Source: Thermoanaerobaculia bacterium (GTDB lineage: Bacteria; Acidobacteriota; Thermoanaerobaculia; Multivoradales; UBA5704). From it: a DNA stretch of 53,715 bases. The notes below the pieces were generated by a model. It made no database searches, was not told the origin of the DNA, and saw nothing but the letters and a program-made list of their open reading frames with translations. A program made the translations under genes and the position numbers. Each line of letters starts with the position of its first letter. Within the stretch, counting starts at the first letter, position 1. The stretch covers positions 1 to 53,715 of the forward strand of contig DASXJP010000663.1 in assembly GCA_036497345.1 (NCBI GenBank), given 5' to 3'. Positions 1 to 53,715 of the stretch are shown piece by piece.

Positions 1-92
1 ACACCCGTTCCCATTCCGAACACGGCAGTTAAGCCCCTCAGCGCCGATGGTACTGCATGCGAAAGTGTGTGGGAGAGTAGGTCGTCGCCGGA
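1..92 (+). rRNA. rrf: 5S rRNA, 3' portion (5' end lies outside the window)
   Basis: CCCGTTCCCATTCCGAACACGG...GCGCCGATGGTACTG...GGGAGAGTAGGTCGTCGCCGG matches the conserved loop C, helix IV/V and closing stem of bacterial 5S rRNA. A hairpin terminator follows. Confidence 0.9.
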
Positions 93-106
93 AAGTAATC
101 TTCACT

Positions 107-140
107 GCCCCTCGGGAAACCGAGGGGCTTCGTTTTGTTG
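107..140 (+). terminator. Rho-independent terminator of the rRNA operon
   Basis: GCCCCTCGG-GAAA-CCGAGGGGC perfect 9-bp stem with a GAAA loop, followed by TTCGTTTTGTTG. Confidence 0.7.
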
Positions 141-174
141 CCCTGGGGCTCCCGGCGGGCTAAGCTTTAGCTCC

Positions 175-33345: not shown

Positions 33346-34449
33346 CTACTTCTTCCCCATCGAGTAATACACCGTCAACACCGCCCGCCGCCCCTCCCCT
33401 CCGGGACCGCTCTCGAAGGGGGCCAGGATTACCGTCCCCTGGGGATTGCGCACCAGGATCGGATCGCCAGGCCAGCGGCCGATGTTGTTCGGGCAGGCCT
33501 GGGCGGTGGGGCAGTCGAGGCTGTCCTTGCCGTCCTGCACCTCATAGCGATAGGCGGTGTAGTGCGCGCCGGCCGGCAGGGCGATGCGCAGGACGTGGCA
33601 GCCCGCCGGCAGATCGGCGGGCACCGTCCCCCCCTTCAGCTTCGCGGCGATGTCCCCGCAGCCGTTGCCGCTTCCGGAAATCACCCACTCTGTGGACAGG
33701 GCGGTCTCTCCGGGCTGGCACTCGACGCAGGTGCGGTCCTTGGCCGTGCGGATGCGGACCGCGTCGACCGGCGGGGCCGCGGGCGGGACGGGCGCCGGAG
33801 TCGGCAGGACGGGCGGCTGGGGCGCCGGCGCCGGCGTGGGGGCCGGAGCCGGATTCGTGGGTGGAATCCTGGGCATCGGATGCGGCGGAATCTTCGGAGC
33901 GCTCGGCTCGGGCGCGGGCGGCTCCTGTTTCGGCGCCGGCGCGGGCTGAGCTTTGGGCTCAGACGCCGGTGGTGTCGCGGGGACCGCGGGGGCCGGACGC
34001 GGAGCCGGGGAGGCCGGCGGCGGGGCGGCGGCCCGCGCCGGAGCCGGACCCGGGGTGCCACGCGAGAGCTTGACCCGCATCAGGCTCGTCCCCCCGCCGG
34101 GCACCCGGAACTGGGTGACCTCCACGACCTCGGGACGACCCCCCGAGCGGACGTTGATCTCCGCGATGTAGGTCATGAACCCGTCGTGGCTGACCTCCAC
34201 GTGCCAGGTCCCCTCGGCCAGGCCCGCCACGTTCGCCCGGCCCCTGGAGTCGGTCTCCACCGCCGGCGGCCCGTCCTTGGGATTGAGCGAGGTGTACTGG
34301 ACCAGGACATGGGCGCCCGCGAGGGCGTGCCCATGGTCATCCTCCGCCCGGACCTCCACCGCGGACGGTCCGCTCCAGAGTTGGGCGTGCGCCACGGCGG
34401 GCGCGATCAGCAACCAAAGCCAGCAGAGCTTCCGCACGTCGAATTGCAC
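33346..34449 (-). CDS. Secreted protein: carboxypeptidase-regulatory-like beta-sandwich, Pro/Ala-rich linker, Cys-rich C-terminal domain
   Basis: GTG 34449 after AAAGGGG. Signal peptide ...LLIAPAVAHA. VRAEDDHGHALAGAHVLV...TDSRGRANVAGLAEGTWHVEVSHDGF, then a ~110-aa P/A-rich tract, then a domain with 6 Cys. Confidence 0.65.
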   Translation of the reverse strand: MQFDVRKLCWLWLLIAPAVAHAQLWSGPSAVEVRAEDDHGHALAGAHVLVQYTSLNPKDGPPAVETDSRGRANVAGLAEGTWHVEVSHDGFMTYIAEINVRSGGRPEVVEVTQFRVPGGGTSLMRVKLSRGTPGPAPARAAAPPPASPAPRPAPAVPATPPASEPKAQPAPAPKQEPPAPEPSAPKIPPHPMPRIPPTNPAPAPTPAPAPQPPVLPTPAPVPPAAPPVDAVRIRTAKDRTCVECQPGETALSTEWVISGSGNGCGDIAAKLKGGTVPADLPAGCHVLRIALPAGAHYTAYRYEVQDGKDSLDCPTAQACPNNIGRWPGDPILVRNPQGTVILAPFESGPGGEGRRAVLTVYYSMGKK

Positions 34450-34557
34450 GATCCGCCCCTTTCTCGAGACGAGACGATCTCCCGCGCCGTTCCCCTGAGG
34501 AGAATAATACCCGGCCGCCCCCCTGAAACCTTCTTCTCAGGTCTCCGTATCACCCTC

Positions 34558-34586
34558 TTGACGTCCAACGACCCAGGTAGTACTAT
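34558..34586 (+). promoter_or_regulatory. sigma70-type promoter of the blaI/blaR1-like operon
   Basis: TTGACG-N17-TACTAT, with the -10 box ending 27 nt upstream of the ATG. Confidence 0.55.
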
Positions 34587-34591
34587 CTGGG
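34572..34591. promoter_or_regulatory. Palindromic operator candidate overlapping the -10 box
   Basis: CCCAGGTAGTACTATCTGGG: CCCAG/CTGGG arms around the perfect palindrome TAGTACTA (18 of 20 positions symmetric). Confidence 0.5.
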
Positions 34592-34613
34592 TAGTTGAAG
34601 CGGAGGACGCGAT

Positions 34614-35009
34614 ATGGAAACAGCGGAGACATCACACCACTTCGGGGATCTTCAGCTCGCCATCATGCGGGTGCTGTGGAACCATGACGAGGCGACGGTG
34701 GCCGAGGTCCACGAGGCGCTCGAGCCGGAACGCGGGCTCGCCCTCACCACCATCGCCACCATGCTGACCAAGATGGAGAAGAAGGGGGTGGTGGAGCACC
34801 GGGCCGAAGGGCGCCGGTTCGTCTACCGCCCGTTGGTGAGCGAGGACCAGGTCCGCCGCTCCATGGTAGCCGATCTGACCTCGCAGCTCTTCCGGGGCGA
34901 CGTGACCGCCCTGGTCAACCATCTGTTGTCCGAGCATGAGATCGACGCGCGGGAGCTCGCCCAGCTCCGGGAGCTGATCGCGTCCAGCGGACGCAAGGAG
35001 GGACACTGA
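34614..35009 (+). CDS. BlaI/MecI/CopY-family transcriptional repressor
   Basis: 131 aa. Winged-helix N-terminus LQLAIMRVLW...ATVAEVHEAL...LTTIATMLTKMEKKGVV. Confidence 0.85.
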   Translation: METAETSHHFGDLQLAIMRVLWNHDEATVAEVHEALEPERGLALTTIATMLTKMEKKGVVEHRAEGRRFVYRPLVSEDQVRRSMVADLTSQLFRGDVTALVNHLLSEHEIDARELAQLRELIASSGRKEGH

Positions 35010-37024
35010 TGCTCACGGGATCCTTCGCCGGCCAGGCGGTCGCCTGGATGCTGACCTACCTCCTGCACAGCACCCTGCTGTTGGGCCTCGCCTGGCTCGC
35101 CTCGAAGCCGCTCTCGCGGTGGTCGGTGGCGGCCGAGGAGATGGTCTGGAAGCTCGCCCTCGTCGGGGCCCTCTTCACCGCCTCGCTGCAGCTCGCCGCC
35201 GGCTGGCAGCCCCTCGCGGGCCAGTGGCGCCTGGCGGATCTGGGCGGCGCGGCTGTAACGATGCCGAGTAAGCCCGTAGGGGCGGGGCTCGTCCCCACCC
35301 GGGTGGAGGCGAGCTCCATCTCTGCTATCCCATCCCATTCCGTGCGCGCAAAATCCGAGGCGCTCCAGGCTCCGCCGGCGGCGCCCACCCGGTCCCTCCC
35401 CTCGATCGCGACCCTGATTCTGGCTGCCTGGGCCCTGGGCGCCCTGGTCCTGCTGGCCGCGTTCGGGCGCTCGTACCTGCGCCTGGGCCGCCGCCTGCGC
35501 AGCCGGCCGCGAGTCGTGGGTGGGGATCTCCACGCCCAGCTCCGCACGCTCGCCGCCCAAGCCGGGCTGGCGGATGCCGTCCGCCTCTCCTGCTCCTGCC
35601 GGGTGCCGGTGCCGCTGGCAATGGGCCTGCGGGAGCCCGAGATCTGCGTGCCGCCGCGCGCGCTCGTCAGCCTCACCGAGGAGCAGCAGGAGGGAATGCT
35701 CGCCCACGAGCTGGCCCACCTCGCGCGGCGCGATCCCTTCTGGCTCGTGCTCGGACAGGGCCTGGCCTGCGCCCTCTTCCTCCAGCCGCTCAACTGGGTG
35801 GCCCGCCGCCGCCTGCGGGAGATCTCCGAGATGCTGAGCGACGAGTGGGCGGTGGCCCGCACGGGCCGGCCGCTCTCGCTCGCCGGCTGTCTGGCCGAGG
35901 TCGCCGGCTGGTCGGTGGGCTCTCCGGCGCTGCCGGTGCCCAGCATGGCGGACCGGCCGTCGAGCCTCGGCCGCCGCATCCGCCGCCTGCTCGACGAGAC
36001 CCGTCTGCCCGAGAGCCCGGCGCGCCGGGCCTGGCTGGCCGCCGCCATGGGGGTCCTGGTGATCGCCGTCGCCGCCATGGCTCCGGCGGTCTCCGCCGCC
36101 CGGCCCGAGCCGCTTCAGCCCAAGAAGCCGGCCGCGCCCCACGTCGAGGTGGACGTCAATGACGCCACCGACGCGCCCACGGCCCGGGCCGCCGCCGAGG
36201 AGGATCGGGACCACGGCCACCACGATCACGCCCAGGCGATGAAGGACCGCGAGGCGGATGACGAGGACGCCGAGCCCATGGTCGACGCGGACGAGATCGG
36301 TGATCAGGTGAGCGAGTCGGTGGATGCAGCGCTGGAAGGGTTGGACGGCGAGCTCCAGGCCCTCTCCGACCAGCACGATCTCACCCAAGAGCAGCAGGAG
36401 AAGCTGTCGCGCGACATGGAGAAGATGAGCCAGGACCTCCAGAAGAACCTCAACCCCCGCCTGGAGAAGCTCACCCGTGAGCTGTCCGAGAAGGCCACCC
36501 ATATGGCGCCCTCCGCCGAGATGCAGCGGCTGGCCCAGGAGATGGCGAAGCTCGGCGAGCAGATGCGCCCCTCCGGGGAGGAGCTCGCCAAGCTGCAGGC
36601 CCTGGTCGACCAGGAGGTGCGGAAGCACGGCTCCGACGGCAAGCTCACCGCCGAGGAGCGCGAGCGCATCCGTCGCCAGGCCCGGGAGATGGCCGAGAAG
36701 ATGAAGCCCACCGAGGAGCAGCGGCGGAAGATGGAGGAGCTCCGCGCCCAGATGGAGGCCGAGAAGGCCAAGATGGGCGAGGACTTCCGCGCCGCGAACC
36801 GGGAGGAGATGGAGAAGCTCCAGAGGGAGATCCACGAGGAGATCGAGCGCGAGATGAAGGGGATGCGCGACGAGCTCCGCCGTGAGATGGACGAGCGGAA
36901 AGCGATCGAGCGCCAGGAGCGCAAGGACCGCCGGGAGCAGCACCACGACGCCAAGCCGGACCACGACCAGAATGACGATAGCGGGTCACCGAAGCCGCCG
37001 GCGAAGCACTCCTCCGGCTGCTGA
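35009..37024 (+). CDS. BlaR1/M56-family membrane metalloprotease sensor with a charged coiled-coil C-terminal region
   Basis: The ATG overlaps the blaI stop by 1 nt (TGATG). TM helices and zinc motif HELAHLARRD. A last TM at about residue 345 is followed by ~300 aa rich in E/K/R/M with LTxxQ-like motifs. Confidence 0.85.
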   Translation: MLTGSFAGQAVAWMLTYLLHSTLLLGLAWLASKPLSRWSVAAEEMVWKLALVGALFTASLQLAAGWQPLAGQWRLADLGGAAVTMPSKPVGAGLVPTRVEASSISAIPSHSVRAKSEALQAPPAAPTRSLPSIATLILAAWALGALVLLAAFGRSYLRLGRRLRSRPRVVGGDLHAQLRTLAAQAGLADAVRLSCSCRVPVPLAMGLREPEICVPPRALVSLTEEQQEGMLAHELAHLARRDPFWLVLGQGLACALFLQPLNWVARRRLREISEMLSDEWAVARTGRPLSLAGCLAEVAGWSVGSPALPVPSMADRPSSLGRRIRRLLDETRLPESPARRAWLAAAMGVLVIAVAAMAPAVSAARPEPLQPKKPAAPHVEVDVNDATDAPTARAAAEEDRDHGHHDHAQAMKDREADDEDAEPMVDADEIGDQVSESVDAALEGLDGELQALSDQHDLTQEQQEKLSRDMEKMSQDLQKNLNPRLEKLTRELSEKATHMAPSAEMQRLAQEMAKLGEQMRPSGEELAKLQALVDQEVRKHGSDGKLTAEERERIRRQAREMAEKMKPTEEQRRKMEELRAQMEAEKAKMGEDFRAANREEMEKLQREIHEEIEREMKGMRDELRREMDERKAIERQERKDRREQHHDAKPDHDQNDDSGSPKPPAKHSSGC

Positions 37025-37910: not shown

Positions 37911-38010
37911 GGAAGCGCTCGGGGGCTGGTGCCTCCTGCGGTCTTCAAAACCGTTGTCCGGCGCCGGTTGCGGCGTCGGGGGTGGGTTCGATTCCCATGC
38001 GCTTCCGCCA
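37911..38010 (+). tRNA. selC: tRNA-Sec (anticodon UCA)
   Basis: 8-bp acceptor GGAAGCGC/GCGCTTCC, 6-bp D stem GGGGGC/GCCTCC with 4-nt loop TGGT, anticodon loop CTTCAAA, long variable arm, T arm GTGGG-TTCGATT-CCCAT, discriminator G and CCA. The ends are identical to E. coli selC (GGAAG...CTTCCGCCA). TAGAAT -10-like box at 37897-37902. Confidence 0.88.
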
Positions 38011-38153
38011 GTTAGCTCAAGGGTTACGACAGCTTCTCGACGCCAGTTTCTTTCCACTTCAGACTTCCTGCTCCTCCCGAGCTGGCGGGAAAGAGTCTCG
38101 CTGAAGCGCTCGCCAGTCGAGCCGCGGCGGTTCTCGACACCACAAGGGGGGAG

Positions 38154-39203
38154 TCAGCGATGGCTGGCGGGGAGCGCTTCCCAGAGCCACTGTCCCACCC
38201 GCCGGGCGGAAACGTAGCTCACCCAGGCGGCCGCACCGAGCAGTTGGGTGTCCGTGGGATACCGGGCGCGATAGGCGGCGACAACGGCGCCGTCCACCCG
38301 GTAGGAGGCGAGCGCGGTGAGAAGGGCGAAGCGGCCCGCGGCCTTCTCTTCTGGGGGAACCCCGGTGAGCGCGGTGTCGAGCTCTTTCGGGTCTAGACCC
38401 CCGAGGCCCGGATCGGTGCCATCCCAGGCTTCGAGCCGTTCCAACACCCGCTCCCGTACCGACTCGTGTAGCGCGTTCTGGACCGCGGCGTCCACTGCTG
38501 CGGCATAACGGGCGAAGGCGCCGGCCACGCTGGGATTCCCCCGCGCCCAGGGGAGGTCGGCCGGCAGATCGGCGGGCTCCAGGAGGGCCAGCGACGCGCC
38601 CGGCACGCGACGGACCGATACGAGCGCCGCAAAACGGCCGGCAGCGAGCTTCCTGATCCACCCCTTGGCCCAATGAGCCACCGAGGGCAGGGGATAGGGC
38701 GATTCAGGCAGGAAGACGTGGGCCATACGGTTGATGTAGTGGAACGCCATCGCGGTACCGATCATCTCGCTGGTATCCGCGGCCGGGAACGGCGGCTGTG
38801 ACAGCGCAGCGGCTCCGGGAGAACGGTGCGCCGCTCCCCAGGCCACGACCTCGCGGAGCCTCTCGTCGCGCAACGCGCCGGGTTTCCTGCCCGCGAGCGC
38901 CTGGGCGGCGTCCCGCTCCCCGGCCGCTTCCAGCATGAGGGTATGGGCGTCAATGCAATAAGGGCAGCGGTTGAGGCGCGAGATCTCCGCCGCAAGGGCC
39001 TCCTTGACCGGTCTCGCGACTTGACCGGTTACGAGTGTCTCCCGCAGCACGCACCAGGCACCGGCTAGCAGCCGCGGCACCGGAGAGTGGAGAGGGATCG
39101 GCGGCAGCAACCCGAACTCCCGCCGCGCCTGGGAGTAGACTTCAGCCACCAGCCCGGTGGCCGCTGCGGGCGAGACCGGCTGGAGGTATCGGATCTCTGG
39201 CAT
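38154..39203 (-). CDS. Carboxymuconolactone decarboxylase (AhpD-like) family protein
   Basis: ATG 39203 (MPEIRYLQPV...). AhpD-like core with LNRCPYCIDAHT. Confidence 0.75.
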   Translation of the reverse strand: MPEIRYLQPVSPAAATGLVAEVYSQARREFGLLPPIPLHSPVPRLLAGAWCVLRETLVTGQVARPVKEALAAEISRLNRCPYCIDAHTLMLEAAGERDAAQALAGRKPGALRDERLREVVAWGAAHRSPGAAALSQPPFPAADTSEMIGTAMAFHYINRMAHVFLPESPYPLPSVAHWAKGWIRKLAAGRFAALVSVRRVPGASLALLEPADLPADLPWARGNPSVAGAFARYAAAVDAAVQNALHESVRERVLERLEAWDGTDPGLGGLDPKELDTALTGVPPEEKAAGRFALLTALASYRVDGAVVAAYRARYPTDTQLLGAAAWVSYVSARRVGQWLWEALPASHR

Positions 39204-39321
39204 GTGGCGGCTGGAAGTATATCTCCGCTTCGGAACTATGTCTCGAACAGGAGTCTCCCCGGAACCTGCCTGCGACATCCATGGCAAGCGCGGGGCGAGA
39301 ATCGGAGCTGCTTAGGGCTCG

Positions 39322-39470
39322 TCATGGGCGAGCCCTCGGATGGTGGCAGAGCTTCTCCACGATCTGGGGTACAGCCTCCAAGCCAACAGCAAGACCTTGG
39401 AAGGAGCCAGCCATCCGGATCGCGACGCCCAATTCGAGCATATCAATCGTCAGGCACAAGCGGCCGTTCA
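39322..39470 (+). pseudogene. Relic of an ISAzo13-family (DDE) transposase gene, about 45 codons
   Basis: VAELLHDLGYSLQANSKTLEGASHPDRDAQFEHIN matches the conserved ...LGYSLQANRKT.EG..HPDR.AQF..IN block I recall for ISAzo13-type transposases. A stop lies immediately upstream and similarity is lost downstream. Confidence 0.5.
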
Positions 39471-39614
39471 GCCGCACGATCGGATCCAATATGGCCAATA
39501 TGCCATAGATCAATTCCTCGACCAGCTCGAATTTGCCTCTCGAAACGCCGTCGCAGGGGGTACCTAAGCTGCGAAAGAAGAGTATATTCATTTCTCTTGC
39601 TAAAGGGAGGTTGC

Positions 39615-40349
39615 ATGAGACTTCTCAAAGACTACGTGAACGAGCCCCTTGACTGGCGTCGTTACCAGGTAGCAATGTACATCTTTGGAATCGTGCTCTT
39701 CTCGCTCGGCGCCAAAGGCTTCATCGATGCGAAGCTCGGCACCGACCCTCTGGACGTGCTCGTCATCGGCATGAACCGGCACTTGGGCGTGGGGCTCGGC
39801 ATCTGCTCCTCGCTCGTCGCCGTCACCTTTCTCGTGTGGTGGATGCTCTGGAACCGCAAGCTTCCACCGCTCACCCCGTTCGTCAGCACGGCGGCCGTCG
39901 GCTTCCTGCTCGACTTCTGGAACGCGATCAGGCTTGAGCAATACACGATCGGCGCGGTGCCCGTTCAAATCGTCCAGATTTTCGGTGCGACGGTCAATCT
40001 CTGGGCCATCGTCCTCGACGTCATCTCGCTCCTCACCTGCGCCTATGCTTCGTCCATCATTATCATGAGCGGTATCGGTATCCGCATCATGGACCTCGTC
40101 GCCATCACCATGATCGAGCGGTGGGGCTGGGCGTTTTTCCGCGCCAAGATGGTCCTTGAGATCAGCCTCTTCATGTCGGGCTGGCTCCTTGGCGGACCGA
40201 TGGGTATTACCACAGTGCTATTTCTCTTCCTGGTCGGCCCGTTCATTCAGCCTTTCATGTGGATGAATGCCACGTACCTCAACCTTCCGAACCACGGCAT
40301 CCACTCGGCTCACCACCGGATCCGTGGTGGCCTGAGGCAGCCCGGCTGA
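39615..40349 (+). CDS. Polytopic membrane protein (YczE/YitT-like, tentative), low-GC gene
   Basis: SD AAAGGGAGG, then ATG 39615. About 6-7 TM helices. GC is about 52% against about 70% in the surroundings. Confidence 0.65.
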   Translation: MRLLKDYVNEPLDWRRYQVAMYIFGIVLFSLGAKGFIDAKLGTDPLDVLVIGMNRHLGVGLGICSSLVAVTFLVWWMLWNRKLPPLTPFVSTAAVGFLLDFWNAIRLEQYTIGAVPVQIVQIFGATVNLWAIVLDVISLLTCAYASSIIIMSGIGIRIMDLVAITMIERWGWAFFRAKMVLEISLFMSGWLLGGPMGITTVLFLFLVGPFIQPFMWMNATYLNLPNHGIHSAHHRIRGGLRQPG

Positions 40350-40377
40350 GCGCGTTGCAACGCTCTTCGTTGGCTTG

Positions 40378-40551
40378 CTAGCCGGTCAACGAGAGCACCT
40401 CGCACGCCCCGCCGACCCCCACCGGCTCCGCCCCCGCCCGCACGCGCACCAGGGCGGTGCCGTGGGCGTAGGCGGCGAGGTCGTGGGAGCCTTTGAAGAA
40501 GTAGGGGGTGACCAGCTCGTTTCCCGCCCTCTTTTCTCTCCGGATCAACTG
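40378..40551 (-). pseudogene. Divergent 3'-terminal fragment of a moeA gene (last ~57 codons plus stop)
   Basis: The minus strand translates to ...LIRREKRAGNELVTPYFFKGSHDLAAYAHGTALVRVRAGAEPVGVGGACEVLSLTG*, compared with the MoeA C-terminus ...AEIEARNGELHVTPYFFKGSHDLAAYAHGTALARVRAGSARTEAGGRCEVLVVAG*. No upstream MoeA domains are present. Confidence 0.75.
40449..40506. repeat. Left copy of a 58-bp perfect direct repeat (att-like)
   Basis: CCAGGGCGGTGCCGTGGGCGTAGGCGGCGAGGTCGTGGGAGCCTTTGAAGAAGTAGGG, identical to 47111-47168. Confidence 0.9.
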
Positions 40552-40620
40552 AAGCGCCGGGACGGCAATGCCCTGTTCAGCTTTGCGGAACCGTTCCGCC
40601 GGCTCATCCTCACCGCCTCC

Positions 40621-41343
40621 TCAATCCATCTTTTCGTACACGGAGACGTGCCGCTGGCTGTTGGGACCGATCTCGGCTCGGTTCCAGTCGGCCCAGCGGT
40701 GCCGGAGCCGGAGGCCGGCGAGGCGCGCCATCAGGTCGAGCTCCGCGGGCCAGGCGTAGCGGACCTCGACCGGGTAGAGACGGATCTCCTGATTCCGGAT
40801 GACCACGTGCTGGCTCTTCAGCCGCTGGCGCACAGGGTCGTGCTCCGACACCTTCAGGCCGATCCGCTCGTCCGTCACCGCGGTGACCTGCAATCCGCCG
40901 GTGAAGTTGGCGCTCTGGGGAACGAAGGCTTCGAGCACGAAGACTCCGTCCGCGGTGAGATGCGCGGCCACGTTCTGGAAACAGCGCACCTGCTCGTCCT
41001 GGGTGGGGAGCGCGAAGAAGGTGTTGTAGGCCACGAAGATCAGGGAGAGCTCGCCCTGCACCGCCACATCGGCGAAGTTGCCCAGGGTGACCGGAATGGC
41101 CTCCCCTCCGGGCTTGACGCGCAAGCGAGCGACCATGGCCGGCGAGAGATCGATACCCTGCAGGTCGATCCCCCGAGCCGCCAGGGGGAGCGCGAGCAGC
41201 CCCGAGCCGATTCCCAGCTCCAGGACCCGGCCGGCCCCGGCCAGCTCCGCCAGGAGATCGACGGCGGCTTCCTCGCAGGAGCCGAACCACTGGTCGTAGA
41301 CCTCGGCGCAGGCCTCGTTGTAGGTCGGATCTTCGGTGTTCAT
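40621..41343 (-). CDS. Class I SAM-dependent methyltransferase
   Basis: ATG 41343. Motif I VLELGIGSGLLALPLA, post-I IDLSPAMV, and LTADGVFVLE. Confidence 0.8.
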   Translation of the reverse strand: MNTEDPTYNEACAEVYDQWFGSCEEAAVDLLAELAGAGRVLELGIGSGLLALPLAARGIDLQGIDLSPAMVARLRVKPGGEAIPVTLGNFADVAVQGELSLIFVAYNTFFALPTQDEQVRCFQNVAAHLTADGVFVLEAFVPQSANFTGGLQVTAVTDERIGLKVSEHDPVRQRLKSQHVVIRNQEIRLYPVEVRYAWPAELDLMARLAGLRLRHRWADWNRAEIGPNSQRHVSVYEKMD

Positions 41344-41369
41344 GGTTGGCGTGCCCTGAATCCGGCCGT

Positions 41370-43445
41370 TCACGCTCCCAGCGGCAGCTCGCCCTCGGCG
41401 CTCAGGCGCTCCAGCCGGGGCGCCGTGCCCGGGGCCCAGCGCTTCGCCTGGTGCGTGACCCGGTAGGCGAGCGGACCGCCGTCGGGGCGGTCGCTGCGTT
41501 CGAGCGGGCGGGGGATGCAGACGAATTCGACTTGCAGATCCTCGGCGCTCGCCCGCACCACGGCATAGCCGTGGCCGCCGAGATCCGTGAACGCGAGGTG
41601 CGGCGCGACCTCCGGGTTGGCGGCGGCCAGCGCCTGTCGGCGGTCTCCCGTCTTCCGCAGGGCGAGGCTGGCGCGGACGCCGTGCCGGAGCGACAGGTTG
41701 ATCGCTGGCTCCGCCGGTCCCCCGGACGCGGGATCGTGAAGGTAGAGGGCGCGCCACGGCTGGTCTTTTTTCAGATTGTGCTGCGCGGCCTCGAACAGGG
41801 TGGGCGCCGAGATCGAGCCGGTGATGAATTCCACGCCGACCGGCTTGTAGGGTTGCGGCGGCAGCGACCGCGAGAGGGCCCCGGCCGCGAAGGCGTGCCG
41901 GTCCCCGGCGATGGTGGCGAAGCCGGCGATCCGCTCGCGCTCGACCAGATCCAGGATCTCCGCGCGCTCCGAGCGATAGCCGCTCCAGTCGTCGCCGCCG
42001 GCCAGCGCGAAGCCGTCCGCCGGCCAGCGCGGTCCGCCCTCGGCGGGCAGGTTCTGGAGGTCGGTCCGCCAGTCGAGCATGCCCACCGAATTCCCCCACA
42101 GCTTCCAGGTCGCGGCCGAGGCGCGCAGCCGCTCCAGAAACCATTTCTTCTGCTCGCCGCCGAGCATCGAGGCGGGCGGCGCGCCGCGGCGGGGATTGGG
42201 CACGTCGGCGCCGTTGAAGCGGATCGCCGCCGGCGGCTTGCCCCCTCCGTACGCGCGCCCGGCGTCCAGGACCTCGACGGCGTCCAGTGGAAAGAAATAC
42301 GGGAACGCCTTGGACTGGAACGCCGCGGCCCCGGGCTGGTCGACCACCGGCTCGGAGCGGAACGAGCGGTTGTCGGTGAGGATCAGCTCGACGTTGCGGC
42401 CCCAGCGCAGGGTGCGGAAGATCTTGAGGCTTTCGATCGCCGCGAGGTTCCCCTTCTCCAGGCCCAGGCCGTGCTCGTCGAGATCGCGGAGCGGCGCGTC
42501 GGCCACGGCGGGAGCCACGAAGCGGTCGCGCCGCGTGGAGCCCGGCTGGGCCACCCGCGCCGGCTGATACTCGAACCAGGCCTGGTTGGCCGCGGTCTTG
42601 CGCGTCTGCGCGGGCCGGACGCCGCCGAAATTCTGCTGGCTCTGCCACCCCTTCCACGAGAACTCGTGGTTGTCCCACACGCAGACGAAAGGCCAGCGCG
42701 CGCGGGCGTCCTGGAGGTCGGGATCCGCGAGATAGCCGCGGTAGAGCACGCGGTAGTCCTCGACCGTCGCCGGCACGTGGAAATCGGTGATCTTCTCGCC
42801 GCGCGGATAGCGGACGACGTCGCGCAGGCGCCGGTCGTACATCCCCTGCGGCCGGTCCTCCGGATACCAGACGACCTCGTAGACGAAGTCCCCGAGGTGG
42901 AGCACGAAGCCCAGGCGCTCGCCTTCGGGCTGCTTCTCGTCCTCGAAGATCATGCGGCGGTAGGCGTTGCAGGCGCCCTGGGTCACGTTCTGGCAGCTCA
43001 CGAAGGCGAAGCGGACGGGGCGGCCGTCGCCCGCGGCGGGAGCTGTGAGCGTGCGGCCGACGCGGCTGCCGAAGCCGTGCTCGTCGGTGAAGCGATACCA
43101 GTAGACGCGGCGCGGCTTGAGGCCGGCCGCGAGCACCCGGCAGGTCCAGTCCGCCTCGGCGGAGAGAGAGACCTCTGCCCGCGCGGCGACGCGATGGAAG
43201 CCCGGGTCCTCCGCGACCTCCACGTGAAGGGTCTGCGCGGCCTGGCCGTCCGGCCCCGGAGGGCGGCGCGTCCAGAGCAGGACGCTGTCCGGCTGCGGAT
43301 CGCCCGAGGCCACGCCCTGGGGATAGAGATCCCGCCGCTCGGTCCAGGAGACCTGCGCGGCGCGAGAGAGGAGCGAGGGCCAGGCGAGCGCGGCGCCGAG
43401 GGCCGCCGCGCTCTGGATCGCTTGCCGCCGGGTGATGGGAGCCAT
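41370..43445 (-). CDS. phoD: PhoD-family alkaline phosphatase/phosphodiesterase, Tat-exported
   Basis: MAPITRRQAIQSAAALGAALA twin-arginine signal. GVASGDP, VLHLGDFVYE and VWDNHEF. Confidence 0.85.
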   Translation of the reverse strand: MAPITRRQAIQSAAALGAALAWPSLLSRAAQVSWTERRDLYPQGVASGDPQPDSVLLWTRRPPGPDGQAAQTLHVEVAEDPGFHRVAARAEVSLSAEADWTCRVLAAGLKPRRVYWYRFTDEHGFGSRVGRTLTAPAAGDGRPVRFAFVSCQNVTQGACNAYRRMIFEDEKQPEGERLGFVLHLGDFVYEVVWYPEDRPQGMYDRRLRDVVRYPRGEKITDFHVPATVEDYRVLYRGYLADPDLQDARARWPFVCVWDNHEFSWKGWQSQQNFGGVRPAQTRKTAANQAWFEYQPARVAQPGSTRRDRFVAPAVADAPLRDLDEHGLGLEKGNLAAIESLKIFRTLRWGRNVELILTDNRSFRSEPVVDQPGAAAFQSKAFPYFFPLDAVEVLDAGRAYGGGKPPAAIRFNGADVPNPRRGAPPASMLGGEQKKWFLERLRASAATWKLWGNSVGMLDWRTDLQNLPAEGGPRWPADGFALAGGDDWSGYRSERAEILDLVERERIAGFATIAGDRHAFAAGALSRSLPPQPYKPVGVEFITGSISAPTLFEAAQHNLKKDQPWRALYLHDPASGGPAEPAINLSLRHGVRASLALRKTGDRRQALAAANPEVAPHLAFTDLGGHGYAVVRASAEDLQVEFVCIPRPLERSDRPDGGPLAYRVTHQAKRWAPGTAPRLERLSAEGELPLGA

Positions 43446-43683
43446 GGCGCCGATTCTACCCGACGCCAGGCGGCGGGAAGCTTTTCAGTCCCCCCGTACA
43501 GGATGTAACGCTTGGCGGGTCCGCCGCGCCTGAGAAGGTATCCGAGCACAGAGGAGAGCTGGATCGAGAAAGAAAACCATGAATCCTCAACCTGTCAGAC
43601 CGCGGGGGCGGTCGACGAACATCCAGAGGCAAGGGAAGCCTGGGCGTCTCCGATGGAGGCCCGCAAATCCCGGGAGGCTTGAG

Positions 43684-45096
43684 ATGGCATCGCATGCCAA
43701 ACCGCGGGAGCGCTCCGCGAACATTTTCATCAACTACCGCCGCGAGGACAGCGCGGGCCACTCAGGGAGGCTGTTCGATGCCCTGAGCAGCCATTTCTCC
43801 GGCCGGCTGTTCATGGACGTCGACACCCTGGAGCCTGGCGTCGATTTCGTCGAGGCGATCGAGCAGGCGGTGGGCTCGTGCGAGGTGTTGCTCGTCGTCA
43901 TCGGGCGCGAGTGGCTGACCATCGAAGACAAGACCGGGCGCCGGCGCCTCGACGATCCCGGAGACTTCGTCCGTCTGGAGGTCGAGTCCGCCCTGGCGCG
44001 CCGGATCCGGGTGATTCCGGTCCTGGTTCAGGACGCGCCCATGCCCGGCGCCGAAGAGCTGCCGGCCTCGCTCGCCCGGCTGGCGCGACGCAACGCCATC
44101 GAGCTCAGCGACGCCCGCTGGGCCTACGACGTTGACCGCCTGGCCCACACGATCCAGGAGATCCTGGCGGAAAGCCCGGCGTTGGAGAAGGCCACGCCGC
44201 CTGCCGCGGTCGCGGCGGGGGTGGAGGCAAAGGCCACGGGGTCGCGGGTGTGGCTGCTCTCTCTTGCCGCTCTCGCGCTGGTGGCGACCGTCGCGCTGGG
44301 GTCTTGGGCATGGATAGGGCGGACCCCGACCCCGAGCGGCAAGGTCGATCCCTCACAGACCCCGGCGGCCAACCTGGGGGCCGTCACGGTCCCCGCGGGC
44401 GGCCTGGCTACCGGGGCTCCCGCGAGCGGCGGGCCCGCCGCGAATCCGGCTGGCGACGTGAGCAGCGGGAGCACCGCCGCCAAGGCTCCCCGCGCCGTCG
44501 AGACCGCGCCCAGGATTGAGCCATCCGCCCCGCGCCGCGCCGCCGACAGGCCCTCCGAGGCTCCGACCCGGGTGCTCCCCGTCTCGGTCCCGATCTCCGA
44601 ACGGGCCACGGTTCCCTCCAGCGACGAGCCCTCCGTGACCTCCAGAGCGGCCGACCCACGGGGCTCGTCGGTCCCCGCATCGAGCTTGCAGCCGGTGCGC
44701 GTCACGATCGTGTCGCCGCAGAACGGGGATACGGTCGGCTCGGACGTCATGGTGCAAGGCTCCGTCTTCGGGCTCGGCGACCGGCAGATCTTCCTGTGCA
44801 TCCGGCAGAGCAACGGCATGATCTATCCCCGGGGGGAGGTGTTCCCGAAAGCCGACGGCCAGTGGTCTATCAAGCTGAGGAGCTCCAGGGAAAAGACCTT
44901 CGAGGTCCTGGTGGTGGCGTCCGCCAGCAAGGAAGCGGATCAGGCCTTGAGGGATCAGCGGAGCCGGGATGAGGGCCTGGCCGCCCTCCCCGCGGGAGCC
45001 TCCATCAGCAGCGGCGTCCTGACGCTGAAAAAGCAGGGGAGGATCGGCAGCCTGTTCAATCCAAAACGGTCGGATTCGATCGACCATCCCAGGTGA
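43684..45096 (+). CDS. TIR-domain protein with a single TM helix and a C-terminal beta-sandwich-like domain
   Basis: SD GGGAGG, then ATG 43684. IFINYRREDSAGHSGRLFDAL...DVDTLEPGVDF...VLLVVIGREW...RLEVESAL...VIPVLV is TIR_2-like. TM helix VWLLSLAALALVATVALGSWAWI, an ~130-aa P/A/S-rich linker and a ~110-aa C-terminal domain (VRVTIVSPQNGDTVGSDVMVQGSV...). Confidence 0.8.
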   Translation: MASHAKPRERSANIFINYRREDSAGHSGRLFDALSSHFSGRLFMDVDTLEPGVDFVEAIEQAVGSCEVLLVVIGREWLTIEDKTGRRRLDDPGDFVRLEVESALARRIRVIPVLVQDAPMPGAEELPASLARLARRNAIELSDARWAYDVDRLAHTIQEILAESPALEKATPPAAVAAGVEAKATGSRVWLLSLAALALVATVALGSWAWIGRTPTPSGKVDPSQTPAANLGAVTVPAGGLATGAPASGGPAANPAGDVSSGSTAAKAPRAVETAPRIEPSAPRRAADRPSEAPTRVLPVSVPISERATVPSSDEPSVTSRAADPRGSSVPASSLQPVRVTIVSPQNGDTVGSDVMVQGSVFGLGDRQIFLCIRQSNGMIYPRGEVFPKADGQWSIKLRSSREKTFEVLVVASASKEADQALRDQRSRDEGLAALPAGASISSGVLTLKKQGRIGSLFNPKRSDSIDHPR

Positions 45097-45211
45097 ATGC
45101 CACGGGCTTCTTCGCCCTCCGGGCTCCTCGAAGCGGGGGGCCCGCACCTTCTTCTTTGAGGAGCCGCCACCGGCGGCGGCTTCCCATGAACCGTCCTCAA
45201 AGGAGACTCGT

Positions 45212-45559
45212 ATGAAGCTGAGATCCATGGTCCTGGTCCTTGCCTTGCTGCTGATCGCCTCCCTGGCGAGCGCCGCCCAGACCCAGACCGCCACGCCGGC
45301 GGACCCGGCGGCCGCGAATCTGGCGGCGATCTTCGCCGCTCCGGCGCCTCCGGATGGGGGGACCGCGAAGCTTCCGTCGTTCGAGCCCACTCCCAGCGAA
45401 AAGGCCCTCACCTGCGGAAGCTGCAGCGACGCGCCCTGTGTGGGAGCGCAGGTCGGGACCGTCTGCAAATTCCAGAACGGCCAGACCTACACGTGCCAGC
45501 ACGCCTACGTCATCTGCACCTTCAGGGACTGCGAGTGCTGGACCGGGCCGCTGCCGTAG
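45212..45559 (+). CDS. Small secreted Cys-rich protein (8 Cys in the last 50 aa)
   Basis: SD AAAGGAG, then ATG. Signal peptide MKLRSMVLVLALLLIASLASA. The C-terminus is CGSCSDAPCVGAQVGTVCKFQNGQTYTCQHAYVICTFRDCECW. Confidence 0.6.
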   Translation: MKLRSMVLVLALLLIASLASAAQTQTATPADPAAANLAAIFAAPAPPDGGTAKLPSFEPTPSEKALTCGSCSDAPCVGAQVGTVCKFQNGQTYTCQHAYVICTFRDCECWTGPLP

Positions 45560-45629
45560 ACCAGGGCTTCGTCCATCCAGAAGTGAGAGACCTCGGAGGG
45601 CCGCGTGCGCTCCGAGGCTCCCGGTCGAA

Positions 45630-47024
45630 TCACCGCTCCTCCGTGAGGCCCAAGACTCGTTTCAATCGGAACCAGAGATTCCTTGCCTTCCAGAAGCGGC
45701 TCGCTTCCATCCCCCGGACGCGGCTCGTGAGCGCGGCAATCTCCTCGGCGCTCTTATTCAGGCGACTCTCGTACGCGCTCTTCTGCCGCTCGAGTTGCTC
45801 GCCGTGGAGCGCTTCTTGCCGGCTCAGTTGTCCGCGCAACATCACGGTGTCCAGTTGAGCGGACCGCAGGCAGGCCCATGCTACAGGTCCCGAATACAGG
45901 CTCAGATCTTCCCCGCGGCACGAAATACCCCATATGGATAAATGAGCTGACTCCGGGTCCGCGGTCTCGGGAAGGTCCACTGTAAGCTGCCAACCGACCA
46001 CTTCCGCGGGATCATCCGTGAAAATTGAGCTCAGAGAGGATCGGGGCTGAAGATCCCGGCACGATGCCGTAAGCTCGCCGTCAATGCTGATCCGTACCTC
46101 CTGTGGAGGCTGGCCGGTCACCCGGTCGGCAATCCAGCCGCTGAGGCGAAGGCTTCTCTTTCCGCCCCAGGAGCAGTGCTCCAGGAATCCGTCGGCGTCA
46201 CGCTTCAGCTGCAGGCCTGAAAAATCTGTAGCCCCCGTCTTGGCAGGCTCCTCCTTGATCACCACGTACAGGTCTTGGAAGCTGGTGAGGCCCCGGGGAA
46301 TCCGCAAGATCGGATACGCACCGATCGCCTCCTCGACCGCGGAGCGCGCGAAGCTTTCCGTGACCCACGCGCTGCCGTAATCACAGGTATCCAGCGAGCT
46401 GCTCTCGCTGATTTCTCGAAAGATGATTCCCTCTTGCGGCTCAGCCGGTTCTTTATACAGGGACATGTCATGCACGCTGAACAGCAAAATACCATCGGCA
46501 TTCAAGAGCGATCCCAAGCGCCGGAGCCATCCGATGAATCTGGATTTGGGCAGGTGTGTAAAAAGAGACGATACCAGAATCGCGTCGAACCGTTGATCGC
46601 AGACGAATTCCTCCGGCTTGACGGTCGACACGATGCCGTGGACGCCGAGCTCGCGTTCCTGGAAGGCGACGCCCTCGGCGTAGATGTCCGACACCCAGAC
46701 CCGATCCTCAGGTATATCCGCGACGATGTGCCGGGTCACCCGGCCGTAACCGCTGGCAAAGTCCAGAATCGGCCCGCCCCAGGACAAGGAGCCAAACCGC
46801 CATGCGAGGATCTGCCGTTGCGTCGTCCAGATCCGGCGTCCTGAATCGAGATACATGGCCACCGCTTGCTCGAGATCGTGGCCTTGCGCATACTGAAAGA
46901 ACCGCAGCATCTCATCGGCCGCGCTGATATTGAAGCTGACGCCGCGCCAGAGGAGATCCCGGCAAAGCGCTTTGACGGTCAGACTGTCGGAGCCGTTGGA
47001 GTAGGCAAGGTTTTCTGTATTCAT
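45630..47024 (-). CDS. SAM-dependent methyltransferase with a C-terminal extension ending in a coiled coil; low-GC gene
   Basis: ILDFASGYGRVTRH (motif I), ILVSSLFTHLP and ADGILLFSVHD. The C-terminal ~230 aa are an extra domain plus heptad region. GC is about 50-55%. It starts 15 nt after the moeA stop. Confidence 0.75.
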   Translation of the reverse strand: MNTENLAYSNGSDSLTVKALCRDLLWRGVSFNISAADEMLRFFQYAQGHDLEQAVAMYLDSGRRIWTTQRQILAWRFGSLSWGGPILDFASGYGRVTRHIVADIPEDRVWVSDIYAEGVAFQERELGVHGIVSTVKPEEFVCDQRFDAILVSSLFTHLPKSRFIGWLRRLGSLLNADGILLFSVHDMSLYKEPAEPQEGIIFREISESSSLDTCDYGSAWVTESFARSAVEEAIGAYPILRIPRGLTSFQDLYVVIKEEPAKTGATDFSGLQLKRDADGFLEHCSWGGKRSLRLSGWIADRVTGQPPQEVRISIDGELTASCRDLQPRSSLSSIFTDDPAEVVGWQLTVDLPETADPESAHLSIWGISCRGEDLSLYSGPVAWACLRSAQLDTVMLRGQLSRQEALHGEQLERQKSAYESRLNKSAEEIAALTSRVRGMEASRFWKARNLWFRLKRVLGLTEER

Positions 47025-47039
47025 CGCGATTGCCGTCTC

Positions 47040-48239
47040 TCAGCCCGCCACCACCAGCACCTCGCACCGCCCCCCCGCCTCCGTCCGCGCCGACCCGGCG
47101 CGGACGCGCGCCAGGGCGGTGCCGTGGGCGTAGGCGGCGAGGTCGTGGGAGCCTTTGAAGAAGTAGGGCGTGACGTGGAGCTCGCCGTTCCGGGCCTCGA
47201 TCTCCGCCGGCAGGAAGCGGTCGCGGGAACCGGCGGCCGGCAGGGGAGAGGCCAGGGTGCCGGTGAGGGCGGGCCCCCACCAGGAATCCTCGAAGCCCAT
47301 CAGGCGGCGCAGGGCGGGGCGGACGAAGAGCCAGAAGCTCACCATCACCGAGGCGGGGTTCCCCGGCAGGCCGAAGACCAGGCCTCCGGGATGGACCGCG
47401 AAGACCACCGGCTTGCCCGGCTGGATCGCCACCGCGTCGAACACCATCTCGCAGCCGGCCGTGGCGAGCACGCCTTCAACCAGATCGAGCTCGCCCATGG
47501 AGACGCCGCCGCAGAGGAGGAGCACGTCGGACCGAAGGCCCCGATGGACGAGCTCGCGGAGGGGCCCCTCCTTGTCGGGCGCGATGCCCAGCGAGGTGAA
47601 GCGCATGCCGAGGGTGGCCCCCGCCGCGAGCAGGAAGTCGGTGTTGGAGTCGCGGAGCTGGCCGGGGGCGGGGACCGCCTCGGGGGGCACCACCTCGTCG
47701 CCGGTCGTCATCACGGCCACGGAGGGCCTGCGGTGGACCAGTGTCTCGCCATAGCCGTGGGTGGCGAGGAGGGCCAGGGCTCCGGGTGTCAGGATCGATC
47801 CCGATGGGAGCATCGGAGCGCCCGTCCTCAGGACCTCCCCCCGGCGGCGGATGTGCTCGCCCGGGGGCACCCCTTTATGGAAGGTCACCCGCTCCCGACC
47901 GCCGTCGGTCAGCTCGACCGGGATCACGCGGTCGGCGGCGGCCGGCACGGGGGCGCCGGTCATGATGCGGGCCACGGCGCCGGGGGGAATCGCGAAGCCG
48001 GGCCGGTCCCCCGCGAAGACGGTGCCGGCCACCGGCCGGGTCTCCTCGGGCTGGATCTCTCCGGCCAGGGCATAGCCGTCCATGGCCGAGACGTCCGCGG
48101 CGGGCACGTCCACGGTCGCGGCCAGGGGACGGGCCAGCACCCGGCCGGCCGCCTCCCGCCGTCCCACCATCTCTCCGTGGAGCGGGCGCACCCGCTCCGC
48201 GATCCGCCGCCAGGCCTCATCCGGGTGAATCAGGGCCAT
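47040..48239 (-). CDS. moeA: Molybdopterin molybdotransferase MoeA
   Basis: SAMDGYA, RRRGE, GGVSMGELD and GLPGNPAS motifs across 399 aa. Confidence 0.9.
   Translation of the reverse strand: MALIHPDEAWRRIAERVRPLHGEMVGRREAAGRVLARPLAATVDVPAADVSAMDGYALAGEIQPEETRPVAGTVFAGDRPGFAIPPGAVARIMTGAPVPAAADRVIPVELTDGGRERVTFHKGVPPGEHIRRRGEVLRTGAPMLPSGSILTPGALALLATHGYGETLVHRRPSVAVMTTGDEVVPPEAVPAPGQLRDSNTDFLLAAGATLGMRFTSLGIAPDKEGPLRELVHRGLRSDVLLLCGGVSMGELDLVEGVLATAGCEMVFDAVAIQPGKPVVFAVHPGGLVFGLPGNPASVMVSFWLFVRPALRRLMGFEDSWWGPALTGTLASPLPAAGSRDRFLPAEIEARNGELHVTPYFFKGSHDLAAYAHGTALARVRAGSARTEAGGRCEVLVVAG
47111..47168. repeat. Right copy of the 58-bp perfect direct repeat, inside the moeA 3' end
   Basis: Identical to 40449-40506. 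The flanks on both sides are similar but diverged. Confidence 0.9.
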
Positions 48240-48332
48240 CGCTCTCCTCCTGGGGCGCCAAACCCCTCCAGATGGTATAGTTGTCCGGCTTTTTCCCAGA
48301 CTGTGAATCTACTCGACGGGAGGAATCTCGCC

Positions 48333-52977: not shown

Positions 52978-53715
52978 ATGCCTCTGGCCTTTCACCCCGA
53001 CGAGACCAGCCCGCTGGTCGCCGCCCTGCTGAGCGATCTCGGGATCGCTCCGGGGACGCTCGATCTCGCTGTCGACGCCCGCGACGAGATGCTCGGCTTC
53101 CTGATCGACTCCTCCGAGGGGGATCGCGACCGGGCCCTCTTCGGCTACTTCCGCTCCGGCGCCAGCATCGCCGACTCCCTGGGCCAGGTGCTGCGCTGGC
53201 GCTTCGGCTCCCTGGAGAGGGTGGGGAAGCTCCTCGACTTCGCCAGCGGCTACGGGCGGGTGACCCGCTTCCTGGTGCGCGACGTGCCCCCCGAGCGCGT
53301 CTGGGTGGCGGACGTCTACGCGGACGGCGTCCGCTTCCAGGAGGAGCGGCTGGGGGTGCACGGGCTCGTCTCGACGATCCGGCCGGAGGATTTCGTCTGC
53401 GCCGAGCGCTTCGACGCCATTCTGGTCACCTCGCTTTTCACCCATCTTCCCGAGGAGCGCTTCGTGGCCTGGCTGCGGGTGCTCCTGGGGCTGCTCGCGC
53501 CGGGCGGGATGCTCGCCTTCAGCGCCCACTCCCCCGAGGTGCTGCCGGCGGGCGTCCCCAGCCCCGAGACGGGGATCCACTTTCAGGAGACCAGCGAGAG
53601 CGGCTCGCTGGCCAAGAGCGACTACGGCTCGACCTGGGTGACGGAGGACTTCGTCCGCTCGAGCCTCGACCGCGCGCTGGGCCCCGGCGCCGCTCTCCAC
53701 CGCATCGAGCGGGGG
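52978..53715 (+). CDS. SAM-dependent methyltransferase, 3'-truncated by the window end; paralogue of 45630-47024
   Basis: Not in the ORF track because no stop is reached. My manual translation from ATG 52978 gives MPLAFHPDETS...LLDFASGYGRVTRFLVRDVPPERVWVADVYADGVRFQEERLGVHGLVSTIRPEDFVCAERFDAILVTSLFTHLP..., about 60% identical by eye to the low-GC methyltransferase. Confidence 0.75.
   Translation, partial: MPLAFHPDETSPLVAALLSDLGIAPGTLDLAVDARDEMLGFLIDSSEGDRDRALFGYFRSGASIADSLGQVLRWRFGSLERVGKLLDFASGYGRVTRFLVRDVPPERVWVADVYADGVRFQEERLGVHGLVSTIRPEDFVCAERFDAILVTSLFTHLPEERFVAWLRVLLGLLAPGGMLAFSAHSPEVLPAGVPSPETGIHFQETSESGSLAKSDYGSTWVTEDFVRSSLDRALGPGAALHRIERG

Follow-up and report, generated by a model that had tools for sequence, protein, structure and literature searches.

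Additive flexible genomic islands occur beside tRNA genes, the selC-associated islands of Enterobacteria being among them, and integrative and conjugative elements (ICEs) are found in genes such as fda, guaA or rpsI, at the 3' end. In Rhs loci and in type VI secretion system (T6SS) effector-immunity loci, 3' gene ends become orphaned by displacement, which has been attributed to homology-facilitated illegitimate recombination (HFIR) (Kirchberger et al. 2017, PMC5361080, citing Jackson et al. 2009 for Rhs; HFIR itself is treated in PMC3240628). One report deals with tRNA genes as integration sites (bioRxiv 10.1101/2020.11.02.365908), and another describes islands with dusA-specific integrases, which integrate into a protein-coding gene and rebuild it (PMC4482086). 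Here we consider an exact direct repeat of 58 bp that brackets 6.6 kb of accessory genes at the 3' end of the gene moeA. It lies in a 53.7-kb stretch of DNA (contig DASXJP010000663.1, referred to below as the window) from a metagenome-assembled genome (MAG) of Thermoanaerobaculia, and more than 50 homologous moeA loci (L numbers) were gathered for comparison with it. The repeat is real, and its most likely meaning is that of a scar left by recombination in a flexible island situated between moeA and the gene for selenocysteine tRNA (tRNA-SeC), a further instance of a type of event already known.

The 58-mer, CCAGGGCGGTGCCGTGGGCGTAGGCGGCGAGGTCGTGGGAGCCTTTGAAGAAGTAGGG, is found exactly twice in the window, where no second occurrence is expected by chance (Table 1). 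Comparison of the two copies without gaps reveals similarity over 133 nt, at 83%. The right copy is located about 43 codons from the stop of intact moeA. The left one belongs to an orphan open reading frame (ORF) of 56 codons (40378-40548, minus strand), which gives a weak match to MoeA_C and whose stop, at 40378-40380, occupies the position homologous to the moeA stop. An earlier note on this DNA had described perfect 58-bp direct repeats, one in the last ~45 codons of intact moeA and the other in an orphan MoeA C-terminus with its own stop, and all of this proved correct, as did its catalogue of the genes in between: a methyltransferase, PhoD with a twin-arginine (RR) motif, a TIR protein with a transmembrane segment, a Cys-rich secreted peptide and a low-GC methyltransferase gene (60% GC). 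Its claim that the copies diverge on both sides of the identical core holds for one side only. In the 3' direction from the block the two copies are clearly homologous yet diverged (51/71 nt, 72%), while in the upstream direction the similarity of the orphan to moeA is not significant. The same arrangement, with both the repeat and the orphan, is present in a second public record, the Joint Genome Institute (JGI) contig L001, which over 14.6 kb differs from the window only by one single-nucleotide polymorphism (SNP) and a 13-nt indel at 48252-48269. The existence of a second record that shares the arrangement and differs by a SNP and an indel makes an assembly artefact unlikely.

There is nothing special about the limits of the 58 bp. 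No other stretch of the moeA 3' region is as conserved as the block, which does not vary at all among several close strains: the same 58-mer is present without a mismatch in moeA of L003 and L063, and with one or two mismatches in that of L002, L064 and L065. Moreover, the moeA of L063 is identical to the orphan over 81 nt, which comprise the block, the 6 nt that precede it and the 17 nt that follow, and the block limits coincide with private or minority bases of the intact copy. Since the identity between the orphan and L063 extends over these 81 nt, the limits of the block stem from private SNPs of the intact copy and do not delineate the core of an attachment (att) site.

The orphan is truncated at its 5' side. 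Dependable homology to moeA extends from about 40512 (GTCACC) to the stop, and upstream of GTCAC[C/G], the 6 nt before the block, local alignment compared with shuffled sequences gave p = 0.04-0.5. The alignment of the orphan to a profile hidden Markov model reaches only 40529, with low posterior probability, and in-register matches upstream of the block amounted to 9.4/24, compared with 6.0 +/- 2.2 out of register (p ~0.06), with none beyond -25. Without significant similarity to moeA further upstream, the orphan is to be regarded as a 5'-truncated fragment of ~135-150 nt. Its moeA homology ends no more than 24 nt upstream of the block, in a non-homologous junction, and the adjoining filler (40530-40584) has significant homology neither to moeA nor to the sequence that follows the MT1 methyltransferase gene in L082.

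The orphan is also a mosaic. Its central 81 nt are identical to the L063 allele, whereas over the distal 54 nt the identity to any sampled allele is only 57-80%, and its tail (..AEPVGVGGACEVLSLTG) matches no close relative. These distal 54 nt remain in frame and keep the family motifs RAG..P..G..CEVL, which indicates that they evolved inside a functional gene and did not decay. An origin of the tail by neutral decay was rejected for the same reasons, as there are 0 changes in the block of 58-81 nt, the tail is in frame and the stop is at the homologous position. When compared with each of six close-clade alleles, the orphan has 0-2 mismatches in the core and 16-19/48 in the distal part; among natural allele pairs with comparable distal divergence, none of 218 has four or fewer mismatches in the 58-bp block. 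At positions -1, +1, +8, +11 and +14 relative to the block the orphan carries clade-consensus bases, and not those of the present intact copy. A second moeA fragment was found in 0/50 other moeA loci. A search of a collection of 5.8 billion proteins with the orphan peptide returned only the orphan itself and four proteins of ~100 aa annotated as MoeA_C only, and a metagenome scan with the same peptide gave, among the matches listed, at least 10 loci with no more than 71% identity, none of them with the orphan-tail allele or a second orphan. The MoeA_C-only protein P0122 (locus L066) was considered as a candidate second orphan and was discarded, as it corresponds to the last part of a moeA gene call that was split, in a normal locus.

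As regards the intact moeA, its tail is the clade's own, and not a mimic brought in by an element. The end of the gene (..SARTEAGGRCEVLVVAG) is common to ~20 close relatives (P0002-P0020, L002, L003 and L063-L065), and in all five relatives with this type of tail whose downstream DNA was read there is no orphan, and the neighbours are different. In a sliding comparison, L063 is the nearest relative of the window from 49.4 kb to ~47.45 kb, a rank that it does not keep over the final 400 nt of moeA. The sign of a change of the nearest relative, at ~47430-47500, and with it of a breakpoint, is weak (Fisher p = 0.09).

The interval between moeA and tRNA-SeC is highly variable. In the minimal state the two genes are convergent and lie 6 bp apart; in L013, 6 nt separate the moeA stop from the tRNA-SeC 3' end (L013:11198-11306), and in L024 the gap is 37 nt (L024:11194-11333). 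Thus, the whole 9-kb interval of the window is inserted in what is, minimally, a gap of 6 bp. Where both borders are seen, the interval ranges from 7 bp to 6.3 kb; that of the window measures ~9 kb, and that of L080/L081 exceeds 10 kb. Relatives carry from 0 to more than 10 kb of modules there, among them those of the window, DUF6198 and many others, in differing combinations, between conserved flanks that are 85-99% identical among the closest of them, and the point at which the relatives cease to be homologous is exactly the tRNA-SeC 3' end, position 38010. In L065 and L083, partial direct copies of this 3' end (23-50 nt, 86-100% identical; three in L065 and one in L083) separate the modules, with no integrase gene nearby. 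Such remnants suggest that serial integration at the tRNA gene helped to build the island, although none was found at the module borders of the window, where they were sought. The locus thus resembles the additive islands linked to tRNA genes, both in the variable modules placed at a tRNA 3' end between conserved flanks and in the partial tRNA repeats of L065 and L083. It differs from them in that no integrase was seen in any of the sampled loci, no tRNA remnant is present in the window, and the repeat derives from a neighbouring protein gene.

The modules of the window, namely MT2, CysPep, TIR, PhoD-MT1 and the AhpD-like gene (Table 1), are found separately at the same locus in relatives devoid of the repeats. 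A homologue of MT2 (44% aa identity) directly follows moeA in L032. Homologues of CysPep stand directly after moeA in L003, L064 and L080, and in L083 this module is bounded by a remnant of the tRNA-SeC 3' end. The PhoD-MT1 module recurs at 95% nt identity, represented by PhoD only in L081, by PhoD, a 128-aa ORF and MT1 in L082, and by MT1 in L083; in L082 it is followed, ~5 kb further, by tRNA-SeC and a lipoprotein gene. L080 and L081 are parts of one 133-kb contig, on which moeA, CysPep, TIR, several other genes, PhoD (95% nt identity), a number of small ORFs, the AhpD-like gene (92%), tRNA-SeC and finally the lipoprotein gene succeed one another, the modules keeping the relative order that they have in the window. 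The AhpD-like gene is flanked in L065 by partial copies of the tRNA-SeC 3' end. Between window positions 38111-39253 and L065:10352-11492 the nucleotide identity is 97.7%, as against 87-89% for the flank on the moeA side, and this difference suggests that the AhpD-like module was recently exchanged.

Table 1. Coordinates of the features considered; positions refer to the window unless a relative is named (strand as + or -, a point where the feature has none)
Feature	Position	Strand	Remarks
tRNA-SeC	37911..38010	+	convergent with moeA; the variable interval has its other border at the 3' end of this gene
AhpD/CMD-like gene module	38154..39203	-	adjoins tRNA-SeC; 97.7% nt identity to L065, 92% to L081
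ISAzo13-family transposase fragment, 75 codons	39340..39567	+	profile positions 43-87/308; between the AhpD-like module and DUF6198
DUF6198/YczE membrane protein gene	39615..40349	+	convergent with the orphan, 28 nt apart
Orphan 5'-truncated moeA 3' fragment	40378..40529	-	nhmmer alignment 40529-40387, E = 4e-32; Pfam MoeA_C E = 0.0017
Left 58-bp copy	40449..40506	-	inside the orphan fragment
Filler, 55 nt	40530..40584	.	between the MT1 module end and the orphan; holds the illegitimate junction
Perfect palindrome GCGGAACCGTTCCGC	40585..40599	.	just after the MT1 stop; homology to L082 ends here, which marks the end of the PhoD-MT1 module
PhoD-MT1 operon module	40621..43445	-	PhoD 41370-43445, with a signal of the twin-arginine translocation (Tat) type (RR); MT1 methyltransferase 40621-41373
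TIR-domain membrane protein	43684..45096	+	same interval in L006, L035, L065 and L080, 77-84% nt identity
Cys-rich secreted peptide (CysPep), 115 aa	45212..45559	+	no Pfam family
MT2, class I S-adenosylmethionine (SAM) methyltransferase, 464 aa	45630..47024	-	60% GC; starts 15 nt after moeA
Intact moeA (molybdopterin molybdotransferase / Glp-like), 399 aa	47040..48239	-	Pfam MoeA_N, MoCF_biosynth, MoeA_C
Right 58-bp copy	47111..47168	-	inside intact moeA; codons for PYFFKGSHDLAAYAHGTAL
tRNA-SeC remnants of L065	L065: 7678-7700, 9428-9457, 9846-9895		true tRNA at 11514-11561
tRNA-SeC remnant of L083	L083: 2218-2253		

In comparison with the relatives, the only piece specific to the window is 39267-40584, which comprises the fragment of an insertion sequence (IS), the DUF6198 gene, the orphan and the filler. 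The stretch 39267-40377, with the IS fragment and DUF6198, is atypical, with 58% GC in a window of 71% GC. The closest homologue of DUF6198 (84% aa, 85% nt identity) was found in L067, a Thermoanaerobaculia-type locus with ~1.9 kb between moeA and tRNA-SeC, in which it stands, in convergent orientation, directly after a full-length moeA. As L067 has moeA followed by DUF6198, the succession of a moeA end and DUF6198 in the window can be understood as part of another version of the island, a short one. Homologues with 70-80% aa identity come from Magnetococcales, Riflebacteria, Pirellulaceae and a MAG labelled as cyanobacterial, apparently a sign of wide horizontal spread of this gene. An L067-like strain was considered as the donor of the orphan and DUF6198 in one block and was rejected: the adjacency fits, but the tail of the L067 moeA is identical to the distal tail of the orphan at only 31/54 positions. 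A supposed homology between the DNA that follows moeA in L003 and the DNA that follows the orphan was dismissed as well, since it is a GC-rich extension in which the end of CysPep is set against the end of DUF6198.

In this Thermoanaerobaculia clade, the gap between moeA and tRNA-SeC is a hypervariable flexible island. The explanation that we regard as probable is that two versions of it were joined additively, the orphan being the scar of the end of a second moeA allele. The genome would then carry two island versions in tandem. One of them, MT2/CysPep/TIR/PhoD-MT1, would be that next to intact moeA, and the other, the short version with moeA and then DUF6198 as in L067, would be that adjoining the AhpD-like gene and tRNA-SeC. 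A related strain would have supplied DNA of the same locus, which was added, and not swapped, by homologous recombination in a conserved flank at one end and by an illegitimate join at ~40513-40584, just upstream of the orphan, at the other. As a consequence, the last 135-150 nt of the second moeA allele would have been trapped as a non-functional scar. This route would correspond to HFIR, alias 3'-end displacement. The second allele would itself be a recombinant, composed of a close-clade core and a divergent distal tail, and such an allele is to be expected if the moeA 3' end is a border of cassette exchange. Under this explanation, the identity over 58 bp would require neither a crossover in the block nor an att site.

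Two directions of the event may be envisaged. If the anchor was in moeA, the orphan would be the displaced end of the resident gene; if it was on the side of tRNA-SeC and the AhpD-like gene, the orphan would have arrived together with DUF6198. The change of the nearest relative inside moeA, described above, speaks for the former option, though weakly. The high identity of the AhpD-like module to L065, relative to that of the moeA flank, speaks for the latter, as does the low-GC, IS-associated character of the window-specific piece.

There is a likeness to Rhs and T6SS loci. In those systems the conserved 5' part of a gene serves as an anchor and a new 3' end is added along with a downstream cassette, while the old 3' end and the genes behind it are shifted, the former being kept as an orphan; no integrase takes part, and modules are reshuffled among strains. 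The locus analyzed here has an orphaned 3' fragment beyond the joined cassette, an intact copy of the gene, and an illegitimate junction at one end. The orphan could represent a moeA 3' end that was displaced, while a second copy of that end kept the gene whole. There are also differences, as the gene is here a housekeeping one, devoted to the molybdenum cofactor, and not a polymorphic toxin, a single orphan is present instead of an array, without a sign that orphan ends are reused, and the event may have taken either of the two directions given above.

Several points weigh against the additive joining of two island versions. No strain with either of the 'parental' versions at near-identity was found among the relatives, so the event is reconstructed and not observed. 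The breakpoint in intact moeA that is expected for one of the two directions is indicated weakly. To account for the mosaic structure of the orphan allele one more event is required, which may have been a previous recombination or a short-patch gene conversion. A trans-acting recombinase is possible, as the window covers only 53.7 kb of the genome. In addition, the tRNA-SeC remnants of the relatives mean that site-specific integration does operate at the island, though on its tRNA side. The searches for recombinase genes have limits of their own: XerD-like or resolvase-like ORFs were not found among the 4497 ORFs of the window and its relatives with hand-typed phmmer queries run without a positive control, and no recombinase family appeared among the 25 commonest Pfam families listed for 67 ORFs of the relatives' intervals, which is an imperfect screen. 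Likewise, none was present among 10 ORFs of the closest relatives.

The earlier note had interpreted the repeats as attL and attR of a discrete integrative element (40507-47110), which would have entered the moeA 3' end site-specifically, with an attP that mimics the gene end and rebuilds the gene, and with an integrase that is either lost or supplied in trans. Such an element would account for an exact direct repeat around accessory genes, and for an orphan that keeps its own stop and is followed by DUF6198, the gene directly behind moeA in L067. Integrase-less modules with tRNA-SeC 3' remnants in relatives indicate that trans-mobilised or decayed integrative modules do occur at the island, and the genome is seen only in part. 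The lack of an integrase or recombinase between the repeats, also claimed in the note, was borne out, Pfam giving only methyltransferases, PhoD and TIR for the genes located there; it argues against the element as well, since no recombinase was found elsewhere in the window or at the locus in relatives either. The att reading itself was not supported by the comparison with relatives. It would lead one to expect that the tail of the intact gene comes from the element and that the orphan has the native one, whereas the opposite is seen, the tail of the intact gene being that of the clade and the tail of the orphan being foreign to close relatives. The block, which was to be the att core, also exists in moeA of L003 and L063 and has limits set by private SNPs, and upstream of the orphan there is no homology that could represent an attP arm. 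Nor does the cargo behave as a unit, because its modules are native to the locus in relatives without repeats, and 0/50 other moeA loci has a second moeA fragment. The composition across 40.5-47.0 kb, which the note proposed to check, turned out to be a patchwork and not one foreign block, from PhoD, which is host-like (73% GC, 0.91 at third codon positions), to MT2, which at 60% GC is atypical. As for an empty site, the L067 succession of moeA and DUF6198 looks like one, but its moeA is only 74% identical at the nucleotide level and has a tail different from that of the orphan, and no near-isogenic empty site was found among the sampled relatives. A literature search for moeA as an integration site gave nothing relevant. 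The dusA islands and the ICEs at gene ends do share with the window a direct repeat of a part of the target gene that brackets accessory DNA, and an intact target gene. Unlike the window, however, they have a cognate integrase by one att site, move as a unit, show the same junctions in many genomes and provide the gene end from the element; each of these features was looked for here and none was found. We therefore regard a discrete element of this kind as quite improbable. A broader form of the idea, in which the block of 58-81 bp is a genuine attachment site, integrase-less cassettes are mobilised in trans by a recombinase with its gene elsewhere in the genome and the gap is a two-sided site of cassette acquisition, with moeA mimics on one side and tRNA-SeC copies on the other, appears to us very improbable, and we extend this judgement to its weaker version, in which the repeat serves as a switch for the reversible loss of the 6.6-kb module set through deletion between its two copies.

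Events dependent on RecA and centred on the block deserve more attention, even though we consider them unlikely. One of them would be a Campbell-type single crossover, within the 58 bp, of a circularised chromosomal fragment; another would be insertion of a foreign fragment with a truncated moeA and DUF6198, possibly with the IS, either mediated by the IS or due to aberrant excision of a tRNA-SeC islet, the centre of which was then homogenised by short-patch gene conversion from the resident moeA. The unusual combination of a conserved core and a divergent distal part in the orphan, unseen in the 218 natural allele pairs, would find here an explanation. The ISAzo13 fragment and the low-GC, horizontally spread DUF6198 adjoin the orphan, and the higher identity of the AhpD-like module to L065 points to a recent import on that side. 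However, with clade-consensus bases at the five positions close to the block, a conversion tract derived from the present intact copy would have to fit exactly inside the 58 bp, and had a crossover taken place within the block, the intact gene ought to have a foreign tail, which it does not. What is left of the IS is tiny, and neither its second end nor a duplicated target turned up, although neither was specifically looked for. As to a chimeric join, made by the assembler, of two strains' versions of the locus at the shared repeat, the DNA comes from a metagenome-assembled genome, and variants of the island from different strains clearly co-exist in soils. Such a join would replace the gene end and not duplicate it, the repeat of 58-81 bp is shorter than the k-mer of 141, a size inferred from the 'k141_' names of sister MAG contigs of the same project, and the window and L001 agree in the arrangement while they differ elsewhere. 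An artefact is hence hardly credible.

If the additive joining of island versions is the true explanation, the repeat is a footprint of the stacking of accessory modules in Thermoanaerobaculia, an uncultured lineage of soil acidobacteria. The stacking of TIR proteins, methyltransferases, a phosphatase and secreted peptides would then appear to proceed via recombination between strain versions of a hotspot, and not by means of a self-mobile element. One possible consequence is that the 6.6 kb could be lost by RecA-dependent deletion between the direct repeats, which would leave a chimeric, in-frame moeA. The hotspot between moeA and tRNA-SeC is concrete and well delimited, and its modules are common to many soil metagenomes, so that it could be used for studies of cassette turnover. 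The case also calls for caution, as att sites cannot be identified at a gene end from an exact repeat and the divergence of its flanks alone when the repeat is the most conserved part of the gene. No new class of system is opened by this finding.

Some further observations concern the modules and their surroundings. In L083 the coding region of PhoD is missing, and its upstream region is fused to the start of MT1 (L083:759-801 compared with window 43429-43471 and 41409), a junction which indicates that deletions occur inside modules of the island. The AhpD-like protein has a weak match to the family 'alkylhydroperoxidase-related (seleno)protein'. A paralogue of MT2 (38-44% aa identity) is encoded ~5 kb upstream of moeA in most relatives (L004, L008, L013, L014, L064, L066 and L080), and apparently also at the right edge of the window (~52980-53715); L032 has both copies. 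In L080, positions 1-3583 match window positions 33398-36978; relative to the moeA block they are placed on the far (right) side, where the methyltransferase paralogue is their neighbour. This position of the homologue of the 33.4-37.0 kb region implies that the segment from the lipoprotein gene to the methyltransferase paralogue is inverted relative to the window.

Others concern moeA itself. Its stretch 47650-47950 is far more variable than the rest, with 20-30 mismatches per 150 nt to every close relative, compared with 4-15 in a number of other stretches. At the C-terminus of MoeA in P0001-P0060, the final 2-8 codons fall into discrete types (VVAG, VVVR, RLLP, IVRY, VVAPQ, AAAGGGGL), which do not track overall identity, and this pattern in the compared sequences suggests that breakpoints of recombination are frequent at the extreme end of the gene. 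In L064 a gene of the rve type (IS/retroviral integrase core; L064:8594-9427) lies between PatA_N and moeA, and represents an IS insertion unrelated to the repeat. The differences between L001 and the window fall in the same intergenic region between PatA_N and moeA, just upstream of the moeA start, where the SNP and the indel may affect the ribosome-binding region of moeA.

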